This document shows positions 272-3,465 of a stretch of 3,513 nt of DNA, one piece after another. Both the position numbers and the translations under genes were made by a program. This DNA comes from Escherichia coli (lineage in GTDB: Bacteria > Pseudomonadota > Gammaproteobacteria > Enterobacterales > Enterobacteriaceae). The first letter of the stretch is position 1. The number at the start of each line of letters is the position of its first letter. The notes beneath the pieces were generated by a model. The model did not search any database, was not told the DNA's origin, and saw only the letters and a list, made by a program, of their open reading frames with translations. The stretch lies in NCBI RefSeq assembly GCF_003334335.1, contig NZ_QOWQ01000083.1. One strand, written 5' to 3'.

Positions 272-697
272 TCAATGCACAACAACAGCATTACCAGGCT
301 GACCACCACTGTTAGTCAGGGTGCCCCAGGCGATCGCTACAGCGACAAAATCATCCACATCTTTCACCAGCCGATCCCGTCGTTCGACGATCTCCCGGTA
401 ATATTCAGAACTGTGACTGCGCATACGGGCCACCAGCAAAGGCGGCATCGCCTTTTCGATCGCCGGTAACAGAGCCTGCATTTTTTCAACAGCATCAGGG
501 GTGTCTTTATCCAGCCAACGGAAAATTTTCTGGGTATTACGGGCCAGGGCTTCCGGATGGCTGTCGTCATACAGTTCCGGGAACGTCATTCCCAGCTCGA
601 AATACGCTTTGGTAATTTTCGCAGCCGGTACTTTTTCGCCGTCCGGATGCGCCCAGACATTCATCGCCATGCGGATGTGTTCATGCTTGATTTTCAT
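272..697 (-). CDS. ydaT: YdaT-family protein (CII-like prophage regulator; historically annotated 'putative toxin YdaT')
   Basis: 141-aa ORF starting MKIKHEHI..., which matches my recollection of the YdaT N-terminus of Rac-like prophages. Its start overlaps the upstream cro-like gene by 17 bp (681..697), implying translational coupling, in the cro-then-cII order of lambdoid phages. Confidence 0.8.
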   Translation of the reverse strand: MKIKHEHIRMAMNVWAHPDGEKVPAAKITKAYFELGMTFPELYDDSHPEALARNTQKIFRWLDKDTPDAVEKMQALLPAIEKAMPPLLVARMRSHSSEYYREIVERRDRLVKDVDDFVAVAIAWGTLTNSGGQPGNAVVVH

Positions 698-953
698 GAA
701 TCAACTCCGGTGCATTTGATGTGTTAACCTTGAATCCAACAGGTAAACCATCGGTTGGGTTAGGATAAATATCAGGGCGAATTTCATGCGGGGTAACTTC
801 CCACTTCATTAGCTGACATAACGGAATTACCTGCTTTGGGGGAACGTCAAAGCTAAACCATTGCCAAACAGTCTGTTGAGCGACCCCCATATAACGACCT
901 ATTTCAGCTTGAGTGTATTTCTGCCTAATTTTTTCGCGAGTGCTATCTAGCAT
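681..953 (-). CDS. ydaS: Cro-like HTH DNA-binding protein (YdaS-like)
   Basis: 90-aa ORF with a helix-turn-helix signature (QAEIGRYMGVAQQTVWQW). GAGGAG Shine-Dalgarno lies upstream of ATG 953..951. It is divergent from the repressor gene at 1063 across a ~110-bp regulatory region and is followed by the overlapping ydaT-like gene. Confidence 0.7.
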   Translation of the reverse strand: MLDSTREKIRQKYTQAEIGRYMGVAQQTVWQWFSFDVPPKQVIPLCQLMKWEVTPHEIRPDIYPNPTDGLPVGFKVNTSNAPELIHENQA

Positions 954-987
954 TTTGCTCTCCTCTAAAAAACTATAAGCAAAGCCT

Positions 988-1025
988 ACAATAAAAAACT
1001 GTACACGATCAACAGTTTTTTATTG
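988..1025. promoter_or_regulatory. Operator-like inverted repeat in the divergent intergenic region (O site 1): CAATAAAAAACTGT-N9-ACAGTTTTTTTATTG
   Basis: Left half-site 988..1001 and right half-site 1011..1025 are reverse complements apart from one extra T, with a 9-bp spacer. The region 954..1062 must contain the promoters of the cro-like and repressor genes. Candidate -10 for the leftward promoter is TATAGT (reverse complement of 971..976). Candidate -10 TAAAAT at 1051..1056 would make the repressor mRNA nearly leaderless, as for lambda cI from PRM. Confidence 0.6.
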
Positions 1026-1062
1026 TGATGCTTTTAACAGTATTTACCTGTAAAATTGAATA

Positions 1063-1464
1063 ATGATGAACGCCCTAGAAGTATCTATGTACAGAATCAG
1101 CAAGCTTCTTCAGGAAACTGGATGGAGCCAGGCTGAGCTTGCCCGTAGAATTGGTGTGACACAACAAACTGTTCAACAATGGGTCAGCGGTAAGGCTACA
1201 CCTAAAGCCTCAAGTTTGGATAAACTGGTTGAGGTTACAGGGCATCCATTGCATTGGTTTTTATTGCCTCCTGAAGAGGGGGAGCAAATTTTCACCCCTG
1301 ACACGATGAAAATTGGTCCTCGTCAACGCGAACTGCTCCAGGCTTTTAGTGCGTTTCCAGAGGAAGACCAAGAAAAAATGCTTCAAGAAATCAAAGACAA
1401 GAAAAAATCAATGGAAGAAACCATTGCCCGGTGGTTGGCGGCACAAAAAAGCCGCCGGGCGTGA
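1063..1464 (+). CDS. paaR2: HTH-XRE family transcriptional repressor (CI-like); regulator of the three-component PaaR-PaaA-ParE toxin-antitoxin module
   Basis: 133-aa ORF with a classic XRE HTH (SQAELARRIGVTQQTVQQWVSG) in the N-terminal half and a Lys/Glu-rich helical tail. It is divergent from the cro-like gene and immediately upstream of the antitoxin-toxin pair. The paralog assignment (paaR2 versus paaR1) is from memory and unverified. Confidence 0.75.
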   Translation: MMNALEVSMYRISKLLQETGWSQAELARRIGVTQQTVQQWVSGKATPKASSLDKLVEVTGHPLHWFLLPPEEGEQIFTPDTMKIGPRQRELLQAFSAFPEEDQEKMLQEIKDKKKSMEETIARWLAAQKSRRA

Positions 1465-1491
1465 CCACAGTACAAGAAGAGGAGTTATGCC

Positions 1492-1683
1492 ATGAGTACA
1501 GCCCTTTCTCCGATAGTTTCAGAATTCGAAACTACCGAACAAGAAAACAGTTACAACGAATGGTTACGCGCTAAAGTGGCGTCAAGCCTTGCAGACCCTC
1601 GTCCCTCAATTCCACATGATGAGGTAATGGCTGAAATGGAGAATCTTATTGCTCAAATTGCTGTAACTAACAGGAGCGAGTAA
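1492..1683 (+). CDS. paaA2: Type II antitoxin of a ParE-family toxin (PaaA2-like, small and likely disordered)
   Basis: 63-aa ORF MSTALSPIVSEFETTEQENSYNEWLRAKVA..., acidic and low in hydrophobic core residues. AAGAGGAG Shine-Dalgarno lies 7 nt upstream of ATG 1492. Its TAA stop shares one base with the toxin start (TAATG at 1681..1685). Size and sequence match my recollection of PaaA2 from E. coli O157:H7. Confidence 0.75.
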   Translation: MSTALSPIVSEFETTEQENSYNEWLRAKVASSLADPRPSIPHDEVMAEMENLIAQIAVTNRSE

Positions 1684-1970
1684 TGTTACCCATTTTGTGG
1701 CTACCATCTGCTCGCGATGATTTCCGTCAGATCGTAGCCTATATTGCTAAGGAAAATATTCCTGCAGCACGCAGACTAAAAATACGGATTGAAACGTCTG
1801 TTTTAGCCCTCTCTGAGCATCCATATCTATATCCGCCAAGTGATCGAGTATCCGGTTTGCGGGAAATTGTGGTTCACCCTAATTATATCGTTTTGTACCG
1901 AGTAGCAGCTTCAAGCATTGAAATTGCAAATATTGTGCATGCCCGCCGACAATTTCCCTTCCCTATCTGA
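1683..1970 (+). CDS. parE2: ParE/RelE-superfamily toxin (ParE2-like)
   Basis: 95-aa ORF with the ParE-like pattern (N-terminal L-P-S-A-x-DF-x-Q-I-x-YI, central REIVV-x-P-x-YIVLYRV, C-terminal I-x-N-I-V-H-x-R-R). The start is coupled to the antitoxin stop, and CAGGAG Shine-Dalgarno lies 6 nt upstream. Confidence 0.8.
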   Translation: MLPILWLPSARDDFRQIVAYIAKENIPAARRLKIRIETSVLALSEHPYLYPPSDRVSGLREIVVHPNYIVLYRVAASSIEIANIVHARRQFPFPI

Positions 1971-1987
1971 ACTGAACAATTTTCACA

Positions 1988-2013
1988 CTCCCTCATTCGA
2001 GGGAGTTTTTTTT
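1988..2013 (+). terminator. Rho-independent terminator of the repressor-antitoxin-toxin operon
   Basis: Perfect 7-bp stem CTCCCTC (1988..1994) / GAGGGAG (1999..2005) with a 4-nt loop ATTC, followed by eight T (2006..2013), 18 bp after the toxin stop codon. Confidence 0.85.
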
Positions 2014-2023
2014 GCCCAACACA

Positions 2024-2067
2024 ACAATTAAAAACTGTTGACACAAAACAGTTTTTAATTGTAGATT
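2024..2067 (+). promoter_or_regulatory. Second copy of the operator inverted repeat (O site 2) overlapping a strong rightward promoter
   Basis: CAATTAAAAACTGT (2025..2038) and ACAGTTTTTAATTG (2048..2061) are perfect reverse complements with a 9-bp spacer, extendable to 15-bp arms at 2024..2062. Consensus -35 TTGACA (2038..2043) is built from the left half-site plus spacer, and -10 TAGATT (2062..2067) follows an 18-bp spacer. The half-site is the same as at 988..1025 apart from single-base differences. Confidence 0.65.
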
Positions 2068-2246
2068 ATTTCCACTACCCCACCCCGCCCCACAGAACGC
2101 CAGGCAATACTTCGAGTTACCCGGCAGTGGTCAGGGGTTAAGTAGCCAGCCCGAGGCGTATGAACATGACGGCGGGAACACTTTATATAACAGCGCAGCA
2201 GGTTTTTAGTTCCGCTACCCCGGCGTTAAGGGGAAATGAGGTCAGC

Positions 2247-2399
2247 ATGGATACTATCGAGCTTGGCAACAACGAATCTCTGGTATGTGGAGTATTCCCC
2301 AACCTGGACGGCACGTTTACCGCGATGACGTATACCAGAAGCAAAACGTTTAAAACGGAAGCTGGCGCGCGTCGCTGGTTAGCAAGAAACTCTGACTGA
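2247..2399 (+). CDS. Small prophage protein, YdfA/YdaF-like (DUF1391-type); start uncertain, ORF is open from 2160
   Basis: GAGG Shine-Dalgarno lies 5 nt upstream of ATG 2247, giving 50 aa (MDTIELGNNESLV...RRWLARNSD). This size class matches the ~51-aa YdfA/YdaF proteins that follow the repressor gene in Qin/Rac prophages (from memory). The upstream in-frame ATGs at 2160 and 2166 lie within a possible secondary promoter (TGAACA 2161..2166, TATATA 2185..2190). Confidence 0.55.
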   Translation: MDTIELGNNESLVCGVFPNLDGTFTAMTYTRSKTFKTEAGARRWLARNSD

Positions 2400-2497
2400 T
2401 GAAGGTTAGTAATTAAAGAGTTCTCCACAGGCGAAGTGGAATACGTTCGCCGGACACGGGTAAGCATTCGGCATGCTCTTTAACAATCTGGGTATTC

Positions 2498-2944
2498 CTA
2501 ACCACAAAGGAATCGCATCAATTTGGATTTTGCAGACAGTTTCTCTTGTTGTTCTACGGAGATTCCTATTTTGATCTGGGTTTTTAAGATTGCGATATCT
2601 TTAAGCGACGACCAAATATTATCATCTGTTTTTTCCAGGAGCTTTAACTGCATTTTCAATTCCGAATCGGAATATTTTTCTGCATCATCATAAAGCTGCA
2701 GATATTCTGCGGATTTTCTCATTGCGTTACCTGACTTTTGTCCGAATCCGTAAATCGTTTGAACGGTTGCTATCACAACAATGAGAACTCCAGAAACTTC
2801 AGGAATAAATCCACCAATGACAGATGAACCGAGGATAATACTCACCACTGAGAAAAGTTTATCGAGACGACCAGTCGCTACAGAGAATAGTTGTTCAAGA
2901 AAATAATCATATAAAACCCTGTCAAGAATATCATCCCGGTCCAT
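2498..2944 (-). CDS. Hypothetical small inner-membrane protein: N-terminal amphipathic segment, two predicted transmembrane helices, charged helical C-terminal tail
   Basis: 148-aa ORF with AGGTGA Shine-Dalgarno 6 nt upstream of ATG 2944..2942. Hydrophobic stretches LFSVVSIILGSSVIGGFI and GVLIVVIATVQTIYGF are separated by the short loop PEVS, then a Lys/Glu/Asp-rich tail follows. The gene is convergent with the YdfA-like ORF and visibly AT-richer than flanking genes. No homolog recognised from memory. Confidence 0.7.
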   Translation of the reverse strand: MDRDDILDRVLYDYFLEQLFSVATGRLDKLFSVVSIILGSSVIGGFIPEVSGVLIVVIATVQTIYGFGQKSGNAMRKSAEYLQLYDDAEKYSDSELKMQLKLLEKTDDNIWSSLKDIAILKTQIKIGISVEQQEKLSAKSKLMRFLCG

Positions 2945-3003
2945 ATATCATCACCTGCTTGTTTGATTGTTGCTGTTCCCCCTCTCCTCTGAAGGAGCTG
3001 GAG

Positions 3004-3192
3004 ATGGTTTTGGTCGAATGTTTTTCTCAGGTATATGTTTCCTGGTATTCGGAATGTCCGCCCTGTCCGCAGGCTTACCAGTACCTGAACAATTCTTTTG
3101 AACCACCATATAAAACACCTTCCTGTTGTTGGGGATATCCAGATTATACAGATTTCCTGTTATTGGGGAATGACGGAAACCACCTCGCCTGA
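3004..3192 (+). CDS. Hypothetical Cys-rich small protein (62 aa); may be non-coding
   Basis: Consensus AAGGAG Shine-Dalgarno (2992..2997) lies exactly 6 nt upstream of ATG 3004. Product MVLVECFSQVYVSWYSECPPCPQAYQYLNNSFEPPYKTPSCCWGYPDYTDFLLLGNDGNHLA has 6 Cys including C-P-P-C. An equally long low-complexity ORF overlaps it on the opposite strand, and no family is recognised. Confidence 0.25.
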   Translation: MVLVECFSQVYVSWYSECPPCPQAYQYLNNSFEPPYKTPSCCWGYPDYTDFLLLGNDGNHLA

Positions 3193-3407
3193 CGTGGTTA
3201 AAAGCAGGCACACAACACGAAAGCGCACGGCGAGATTCCTTTGCATATAAGGCTTGTCGTTAAATTTCTTCGACCGTGCACTTCCGGTTGTGGCAGTCCG
3301 CGAAATGGCGCGGCGGTAAGTATGGCTGGGGCTTCCTCCATTGCTCCAGAAAATGCACCGGGTCGTCAGGTTGACCATACGCTTAAGTGACAGCCCCGCC
3401 ACAATAC

Positions 3408-3465
3408 CCATGTGTAGTATTTGGTGGCATCAGTTCTACTCCGTGACTGCTCTGCCACCCTTTTT
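3408..3465 (+). ncRNA. dicF: DicF-like prophage small RNA (cell-division-inhibitor sRNA family), 3' end defined by its intrinsic terminator
   Basis: TTTGGTGGCATCAGTTCTACTCCGTGACTGCTCTGCCACCCTTTTT is near-identical to my recollection of E. coli DicF (..TTTGGCGGTATCAGTTTTACTCCGTGACTGCTCTGCCGCCCTTTTT). The terminal stem differs by one compensatory change per arm (GGTGG/CCACC versus GGCGG/CCGCC). The 5' end is approximate because DicF is processed from a longer transcript, and the 5' ~15 nt do not match my memory of DicF. Confidence 0.55.
3423..3465 (+). terminator. Rho-independent terminator (3' hairpin of the DicF-like RNA)
   Basis: GGTGGCA (3423..3429) pairs with TGCCACC (3453..3459), with internal CAG/CTG pairing, followed by C then TTTTT (3461..3465). 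Orientation is + only: on the - strand the T-run would precede the stem. Confidence 0.6.

Follow-up and report, generated by a model that had tools for sequence, protein, structure and literature searches.

Putative operators shared by two early promoters in a heteroimmune Qin/Rac/CP-933P-type prophage control region of Escherichia coli

Introduction

Two described relatives frame the control region examined here. In prophage CP-933P (Sp12 of Escherichia coli O157:H7), the regulators PaaR2 and YdaS each repress the promoter PL933P approximately 100-fold and both leave footprints on the right operator (OR) region; in addition, paaR2 was shown to be leaderless, and an octameric state in solution was reported for PaaR2 (Jurenas et al., 2021; PMC8630535). 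Repression of dicBp by DicA in Qin is 22-fold, with operators described at dicCp and dicBp (PMC10448788). We analyzed a 3,513-nt stretch of E. coli DNA (RefSeq assembly GCF_003334335.1, contig NZ_QOWQ01000083.1; hereafter the window). It represents a lambdoid prophage immunity region of the Qin/Rac/CP-933P type and contains the same long inverted repeat at two promoters. An original prediction, drawn from the letters of the window, had proposed that a single dimeric protein (the repressor, a Cro-like protein or YdaT) acts at both repeats and thereby co-regulates the immunity switch and the downstream operon leading toward a DicF-like RNA. Comparison with related and heteroimmune loci now makes it very probable that the two palindromes are the OR and left operator (OL) sets of a heteroimmune, lambda-like prophage switch of this group, binding itself being inferred from homologous systems. 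In the literature searched we found no published description of this operator sequence and no binding or reporter results for this immunity type.

Results and Discussion

Two Long Palindromes Composed of 15-bp Sites

A repeat search of the window returned two perfect inverted repeats, one at 988-1002/1012-1026 (arms of 15 nt, spacer of 9 nt) and the other at 2024-2039/2047-2062 (arms of 16 nt, spacer of 7 nt). Compared in direct register, the 39-nt elements (988-1026 and 2024-2062) are 79% identical; in inverted register, a 41-nt comparison (986-1026 against 2024-2064) gives 80% complementarity, with the match between the elements reaching into the predicted -10 of the leftward promoter PR. 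Among 300 first-order Markov shuffles of the window, with spacers of 0-12 allowed, the longest perfect arm was 12 nt and 254 shuffles had no arm longer than 8 nt, so that the observed 15- and 16-nt arms, carrying the same sequence twice, are far beyond chance. The presence of one inverted repeat at two promoters approximately 1 kb apart, and the small likelihood of its arising by chance, were both anticipated in the original prediction and are borne out by these searches, with its coordinates off by no more than one base (the first element ends at 1026 rather than 1025). The first element is located inside the 109-bp gap between a minus-strand cro-like open reading frame (ORF; 681-953) and the plus-strand repressor ORF (1063-1464). 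The second comes just after the toxin ORF and a terminator-like hairpin (1987-2006) with a T8 run and, as had also been proposed, contains the -35 hexamer TTGACA (2038-2043) of a rightward promoter, whose candidate -10, TAGATT (2062-2067), follows 18 nt on.

Each arm of either palindrome is itself a pseudo-symmetric 15-mer of the form ACA(A/G)T-N5-A(C/T)TGT. A search of the window for ACARTN5AYTGT with up to one mismatch gave five matches against 0.55 expected, starting at 988, 1012, 1037, 2024 and 2048, all of which are at OR or at the rightward, PL-like promoter. OR1 (ACAATAAAAAACTGT, 988-1002) matches the motif exactly and fills the spacer of the predicted PR. OR2 (ACAGTTTTTTATTGT, 1012-1026) mirrors OR1 and lies against the PR -35, just upstream of the predicted -35 of the repressor promoter, PRM. 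OR3 (ACAGTATTTACCTGT, 1037-1051), which the original prediction lacked and which was found by the motif search, has one mismatch and fills the predicted PRM spacer. The centers of the three sites (995, 1019 and 1044) are 24 and 25 bp apart, and the third operator makes the intergenic region tripartite and OR-like. On the other side, OL2 (ACAATTAAAAACTGT, 2024-2038) is upstream of the PL-like promoter and touches its -35, and OL1 (ACAGTTTTTAATTGT, 2048-2062) fills its spacer, with centers (2031 and 2055) 24 bp apart; a third OL site was looked for next to 2024-2062 and was not found.

The recognition unit would thus be the 15-bp site. Each palindrome holds two complete operators whose centers are 24 bp apart, and most likely takes two dimers. 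The two 4-5 bp boxes of a site are one helical turn apart, which suits one helix-turn-helix (HTH) dimer, and the pair reads as one long palindrome because neighboring sites are mirror images in this allele group. The earlier picture of a 14-bp half-site pair taken by one dimer over 39 bp accordingly gives way to two 15-bp operators, the 15-mers being what diverged relatives keep when they lose the long palindrome.

One lone ACAR-N7-YTGT match (ACAGAGAATAGTTGT, 2880-2894) was seen within a 148-aa ORF. It is most likely a chance occurrence, because it is also present in a locus of a different immunity type (L059).

Predicted Promoters

The predicted PR (983-1012, minus strand), which would serve the cro-like gene and ydaT, consists of a -35 TTGATC (1012 to 1007), an 18-nt spacer and a -10 TAGGCT (988 to 983). 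Its minus-strand reading, ACTGT-TGATC-GTGT-ACAGTTTTTTATTG-TAGGCT, has the same layout as the PL-like promoter (2038-2067, plus strand), which reads ACTGT-TGACA-CAAA-ACAGTTTTTAATTG-TAGATT and scores 10 of 12 matches in a consensus scan with its 18-nt spacer. The PL-like promoter would be the equivalent of dicBp and PL933P: it is in the same position as the experimentally repressed PL933P, directly before the same conserved leader, and its TTGACA is invariant and its TAGATT nearly so among 25 variants. In nearly every one of 19 variants, PR retains the TA...T of its -10 and the TTGAT of its -35, with the adjoining bases varying. An alternative PR -10, TATAGT (plus-strand ACTATA, ~971-976), was rejected, being TGTAGT or TATCGT in relatives, whereas TAG..T at 983-988 is kept. 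Sites and promoters are thus laid out in parallel, with OR1 and OL1 in promoter spacers, OR2 and OL2 against -35 elements and OR3 in the PRM spacer. Transcription is predicted to start near 976 (minus strand) from PR, 1063 (plus strand) from PRM and 2074 (plus strand) from the PL-like promoter.

For PRM, a -10 TAAAAT is predicted at 1051-1056 (plus strand), invariant in the 19 variants and 6 nt before the repressor ATG, a geometry which would imply a leaderless repressor mRNA and which recurs, with the same -10, 6 nt and ATG, at the repressor start of CP-933P. Public annotations differ on the repressor, giving 133 aa (ATG at 1063) or 125 aa (ATG at 1087). Neither start is preceded by a Shine-Dalgarno sequence, and the distance between the -10 and the ATG at 1063 favors a leaderless 133-aa product.

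Comparison with CP-933P, Qin, Phage 434 and Lambda

The 133-aa immunity repressor (1063-1464, plus strand) combines a 434-like HTH, with recognition helix TQQTVQQ, and a PaaR2/DicA-like C-terminal region. Its best match among solved structures is the 434 repressor (E 2e-5), the alignment keeping T-Q-Q-x-x-x-Q. A Pfam search gave significant E-values for helix-turn-helix-type domains (including HTH_3) alone and no Peptidase_S24 domain. The protein is 42% identical to PaaR2 across residues 37-133, its N-terminal HTH does not align with PaaR2, and it matches the DicA family (NCBIfam NF007257) over its whole length with 52.6 bits, below the cut-off of 101. The 90-aa Cro-like regulator (681-953, minus strand) belongs to the YdaS family (Pfam YdaS_toxin, E 2e-9; phrog_35); it has the helix AQQTVWQ and is 42% identical to the HTH region of the repressor. 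The two recognition helices, VTQQTVQQW in the repressor and VAQQTVWQW in the Cro-like protein, have QQTV-x-QW in common. In 434 co-crystal structures, Gln28, Gln29 and Gln33 read the ACAA box.

CP-933P resembles the window in gene order, with ydaT, ydaS, a divergent repressor, PaaA, ParE, PL and the leader toward dicB in the same succession. The likeness extends to a homologous YdaT with its operator, a homologous toxin-antitoxin pair, the C-terminal region of the repressor, the leaderless repressor geometry, the position of PL before the same leader, and the existence of repeats common to OR and PL. However, neither the repressor HTH nor the Cro-like protein is related in sequence to its CP-933P counterpart (PaaR2 begins MQKKEIRRL and YdaS begins MTLKEF), and the CP-933P operators are of the GTTTAGTAA type rather than the ACAR-N7-YTGT of the window, such that the DNA specificity of PaaR2 is not the one seen here. 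Because both the operators and the repressor HTH and Cro-like protein differ from those of CP-933P, the window represents a different immunity specificity.

The likeness to Qin lies in a short repressor without a cleavage domain, a divergent Cro-like gene (dicC in Qin), and two locations for the operators, one in the dicA-dicC gap and one at dicBp, which serves ydfABC-dicF-dicB as promoter; in the window, the corresponding promoter would drive a ydfA homologue and DicF. In contrast, the DicA operators are of the TGTTAGT...ACTAACA type, Qin is without toxin-antitoxin cargo, and the window repressor falls under the DicA cut-off.

The operators themselves are closest to those of phage 434, which in the annotated 434 genome are ACAAACTTTCTTGT (OR1), ACAATGTATCTTGT (OR2), ACAGTTTTTCTTGT (OR3) and ACAAT...TTGT (OL1-3). 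Window and 434 have in common the boxes (ACAA or ACAG with TTGT or CTGT), the helix TQQ-x-x-x-Q and three OR sites (neighboring 434 sites are 22-23 bp apart), and 434 OR3 is almost the same as the OR2 sequence of the window. Unlike the window, where all OR and OL sites are 15 bp (N7) and the single N6 match (at 2536) is outside OR and OL, 434 has OR and OL sites of only 14 bp (ACAA-N6-TTGT). The 434 repressor also has a LexA-like cleavable C-terminal domain that the window repressor lacks, 434 has three OL sites against the two seen here, and the position of PR relative to the sites is shifted by one operator.

As in lambdoid OR/OL regions, the window has divergent repressor and Cro HTH genes, repeated operators over both of the predicted promoters between them, and the same operator at a second early promoter. 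The OR center spacings in lambda are 24 and 23 bp, and those in the window 24 and 25 bp. Further points of likeness to lambda are the recurrence of the same operators at a second promoter beyond the repressor operon, the leaderless repressor mRNA (predicted in the window) and the presence of cargo between the repressor gene and OL, rexAB in lambda and PaaA/ParE here. The differences are that the lambda operators are 17-bp sites of unrelated sequence, that the window repressor is without a RecA-dependent cleavage domain and that looping, known for the CI octamer of lambda, is only hypothetical in the window. The analogy that the original prediction drew with lambda OR/OL and with DicA at the dicB operon is upheld by the occurrence of the same operators at OR and PL in 49 of 50 loci with the same repressor helix and by the homologous precedent of CP-933P and Qin.

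Conservation and Co-variation with Repressor Type

Those 50 loci, all with the repressor helix TQQTVQQW, were assembled from an IMG/VR scan with the repressor together with E. coli loci. All 50 have three sites before the repressor ATG, at offsets of -75, -51 and -26 in 49 of them (OR1 at -75 and OR3 at -26), and 49 have a further two beyond the repressor gene, at a spacing of 23-25 bp; in the remaining locus (L008), no downstream site was found within the sequence searched. The arrangement holds throughout although the distance from OR to OL varies from ~550 to 1343 bp depending on cargo. Among the 19 distinct OR variants, OR1 is invariant, OR3 is invariant in 14 of its 15 columns, and the five bases that separate OR1 from the -35 are hypervariable; overall, 44 of 45 columns are invariant in the sites compared with 35 of 64 elsewhere (Fisher p = 1.5e-7). 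The corresponding figures for the 25 PL variants are 22 of 30 in the sites and 56 of 124 elsewhere (p = 0.008).

More diverged relatives (L048, L049, L050 and L057), among whose repressors the identities are 92%, 82%, 69% and 49%, keep the ACAR/YTGT boxes and their spacing, but their site centers and orientations have changed and the 39-bp palindrome is lost at PL. In the OR3 position, diverged relatives have ACAAGGGATACCTGT or ACAAGATGATCTTGT. Conservation of the half-sites in related prophages, on which the original prediction was to be judged, therefore holds for the 15-mers, whereas the long palindrome is broken at PL in these relatives. The loss of the palindrome with retention of the boxes argues against a single 39-bp site and also against an RNA hairpin.

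Five other immunity types (L004, L005, CP-933P, the RacR-type locus L059 and K-12 Qin) each have a repeat family of their own at both OR and PL, and in all five at least two PL sites flank the -35. The repeats are of the CACTTTTAAAGTT type in L004, AATAGCA-N-TGCTATT in L005, GTTTAGT in CP-933P, TTAGGC...GCCTAA in L059 and TGTTAGT...ACTAACA in K-12 Qin. In L004, L005, CP-933P and L059, the type-specific sequence yields ~10 nt past the -10 to the same conserved leader, CCCACCCCGCCCCACAGAACGCC; the K-12 Qin leader is shorter, with only its 3' end in common. No OR or PL match to ACAR-N7-YTGT occurs in 32 kb of heteroimmune control loci. Repressors that are 67% identical overall with the helix AQQSVQK (L053-L056) are likewise accompanied by no such motif, having L004-type operators instead. 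The operator sequence thus changes along with the specificity of the repressor and Cro-like protein while the flanking genes stay homologous.

Alternative Explanations

Several observations weigh against the interpretation of the palindromes as paired 15-bp operators of the repressor and Cro-like protein. The predicted PR (TTGATC, 18 nt, TAGGCT) is weak and the consensus scan did not call it, and the internal symmetry of each 15-mer is imperfect, with 4-5 of 7 symmetric positions pairing. The mirror symmetry of OR1 and OR2, A/T tracts included, is invariant in the 19 variants, which a model of two independent sites does not need and which may hint that the pair is recognized as a unit. The sites in relatives were found with the motif itself, which is partly circular, a concern that the fixed offsets ease, as does a chance rate of ~1 per 16 kb. 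Finally, the whole case for this immunity type is one of comparison and homology.

The invariant symmetry bears most directly on the explanation that each 39-bp palindrome is one operator for one symmetric protein unit, the half-sites measuring 14-16 bp and lying 7-9 bp apart, or, as a variant, for a pre-formed tetramer needing the exact dyad centered on the -35. The arms are indeed perfect at both places, the full 15-nt OR arms with their A/T tracts are mirror-symmetric throughout the variants, and PaaR2, to which the repressor is related in its C-terminal region, is the reported octamer noted above. Nevertheless, this explanation is quite improbable. One HTH dimer could not span the 24 bp between the arm centers, and every arm has two ACAR/YTGT boxes of its own, 10 bp apart; the lone third 15-mer at 1037-1051 is conserved; the PL sites are not mirror images in L048, L049, L050 and L057, and the spacing goes from 23 to 25 bp; and the O157:H7 allele has one additional base in its PL spacer and a one-base difference between its arms.

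A more specific proposal builds on the same symmetry and retains the 15-bp sites. It holds that the OR1-OR2 pair is read as one unit by a short PaaR/DicA-type repressor already assembled into a tetramer or octamer, its dyad placed over the -35, bridging OR and OL across ~1 kb around the repressor's own gene and the toxin-antitoxin cargo and using a 434-type Gln-Gln-Gln code on a 15-bp site. We regard this as rather doubtful, although less so than a single 39-bp operator. If true, it would offer a natural variant for how a 434-like dimer takes one extra central base pair (indirect readout), and also for how non-cleavable repressors achieve cooperativity.

It is far less likely still that the binder is YdaT, or the PaaA-ParE complex in toxin-antitoxin autoregulation, in place of the repressor and Cro-like protein. 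YdaT is a DNA-binding tetramer, with a published operator of TTGATT-N6-AATCAA (PMC9986795), and its gene is next door: the YdaT of the window, the CII equivalent (272-697, minus strand; PDB 8bt1, E 5e-83), is accompanied by an exact copy of that operator (TTGATTTTCATGAATCAA, 687-704) at the ydaS/ydaT junction, separate from OR and OL and unrelated to them in sequence. Near-identical YdaT proteins also accompany prophages whose OR and PL repeats are entirely different. YdaT is very unlikely to bind the OR and OL sites (988-1051 and 2024-2062), because it has its own operator at 687-704 and is common to prophages with different OR/PL repeats, and its inclusion among the candidate binders in the original prediction is withdrawn. 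For the toxin-antitoxin complex, a review citing Hallez et al. (2010) reports partial repression of the paaR promoter by PaaA-ParE. However, no DNA-binding motif is detectable in PaaA2, and L057 keeps its OR and OL sites, with OL straight after the repressor gene and no room for the toxin-antitoxin pair; this candidate was rejected on both counts.

The position of the YdaT site, at the ydaS/ydaT overlap, is where CP-933P has its OM site and PRE promoter.

The least credible alternative, that the palindromes act in RNA, as hairpins for termination, attenuation, processing or stability, or in DNA as cruciforms, and not as protein sites, was rejected despite a terminator scan that flags 2024-2062 and RNA folds of -16.3 and -17.6 kcal/mol (z-scores -7.1 and -6.0), given that the stems are almost all A-U (3 G-C pairs) with no U-run after them, that the true terminator is just upstream (1987-2006), that the second element surrounds a promoter -35 and most of it is therefore outside the PL transcript, that relatives conserve the boxes rather than the pairing (the PL arms of L048 and L049 are no longer complementary), that heteroimmune relatives have direct or individually palindromic repeats in the same positions, and that the palindromes have no Rfam match.

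A Model of the Switch

Under the preferred interpretation, of OR and OL operator sets for the repressor and Cro-like protein, the 133-aa repressor would occupy the OR1/OR2 and OL1/OL2 pairs, with probably two dimers on each; its PaaR2-like C-terminal region may also allow a higher oligomer. Occupancy would silence the cro-like gene, ydaT and the replication genes to one side, and a cell-division-inhibitor operon to the other. The Cro-like YdaS protein, with its almost identical helix AQQTVWQ, would compete for the same sites and flip the switch. The PL-like promoter would drive the ydfA...dicF(-dicB) operon. We infer these steps, together with the promoter start points, the order of site occupancy, the stoichiometry and any looping between OL and OR over 1,036 bp, from a map in which the sites, their conservation and their co-variation with repressor type are observed. 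Coupling of the immunity switch to the ydfA...dicF operon through shared operators is strongly supported by the comparison and by the experiments on the homologous CP-933P and Qin, and this part of the original proposal stands; its single-dimer unit and its suggestion of YdaT as a binder do not.

We therefore place the window within a known kind, as a heteroimmune example of an ordinary and well-understood type of control region; it reveals no new kind of regulation. What it does provide is an operator map for one immunity type of the Qin/Rac/CP-933P group, with five 15-bp sites, three predicted promoters and a separate YdaT site. At least 507 of 5,426 complete E. coli genomes have this immunity module, an O157:H7 allele among them. 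The map predicts which prophages would be homo-immune or hetero-immune and what would keep DicF/DicB-type cell-division inhibitors and replication genes silent. It also offers a natural 434-like recognition code on a 15-bp site, of use for studies of protein-DNA recognition.

The genome count refers to the module at 954-2110, at a coverage of at least 80%. It has two main alleles, one at least 99% and one ~91% identical, the latter including O157:H7. A correspondence of this 91%-identical O157:H7 allele (L003) with the published paaR1-paaA1-parE1 is unconfirmed, the literature searched saying only that two paralogous systems exist and the database names being generic.

Surrounding Prophage Region

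Downstream of the repressor gene are a PaaA-like antitoxin (1492-1683, plus strand; PDB PaaA2, E 1.5e-22) and a ParE toxin (1683-1970, plus strand; PDB ParE2, E 3.9e-37). The pair (1492-1970) is the cargo between the repressor gene and OL, and completes a regulator-PaaA antitoxin-ParE toxin operon, the three-component module of the CP-933P type. The operon ends at an intrinsic terminator (1987-2014, plus strand) formed by the 1987-2006 hairpin, with an 8-bp GC-rich stem, and the T8 run. In annotated E. coli relatives the genes follow in the same order, with dicB and an exonuclease further along at one end and replication genes beyond the other.

Beyond the PL-like promoter, the first part of the predicted transcript is the conserved 5' leader (2068-2246, plus strand), which is common to at least five other immunity types, followed by a ydfA-like DUF1391 gene (2247-2399, plus strand; phrog_751, annotated as DUF1391 in relatives). 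The DicF small RNA (3409-3460, plus strand; Rfam RF00039, 62 bits against a gathering score of 48) belongs to the distal part of the dicB-type operon and was the only Rfam match in the window at a permissive threshold. The leader, which is also found in L001, L003-L005, L058 and L059, starts with a C-rich tract (CCCCACCCCGCCCCACAGAACGCC), is nearly invariant at ~2095-2165 and has no Rfam match. RNAalifold detected almost no covariation in it, the region being nearly invariant, and its role as a Rho-loading or antitermination-type element is speculation.

A variable segment (2408-3199) stands in place of the ydfB/ydfC of relatives and is also found, with 99.9% identity, behind the RacR-type immunity region of L059. 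The segment contains the 148-aa ORF (2498-2944, minus strand), whose product has a hydrophobic core and matches phrog_6315 (unknown function), with no NCBIfam or PADLOC match; the PL-like transcript must cross this ORF antisense to get to DicF. At the opposite end of the window, six GTGAC(A) repeats starting at 19, 30, 41, 51, 61 and 71 (19-76; period 10-11 bp) are located inside the 5' end of a replication-initiator-like gene (minus strand, start at 203), and are possibly iterons or a repeated peptide motif.

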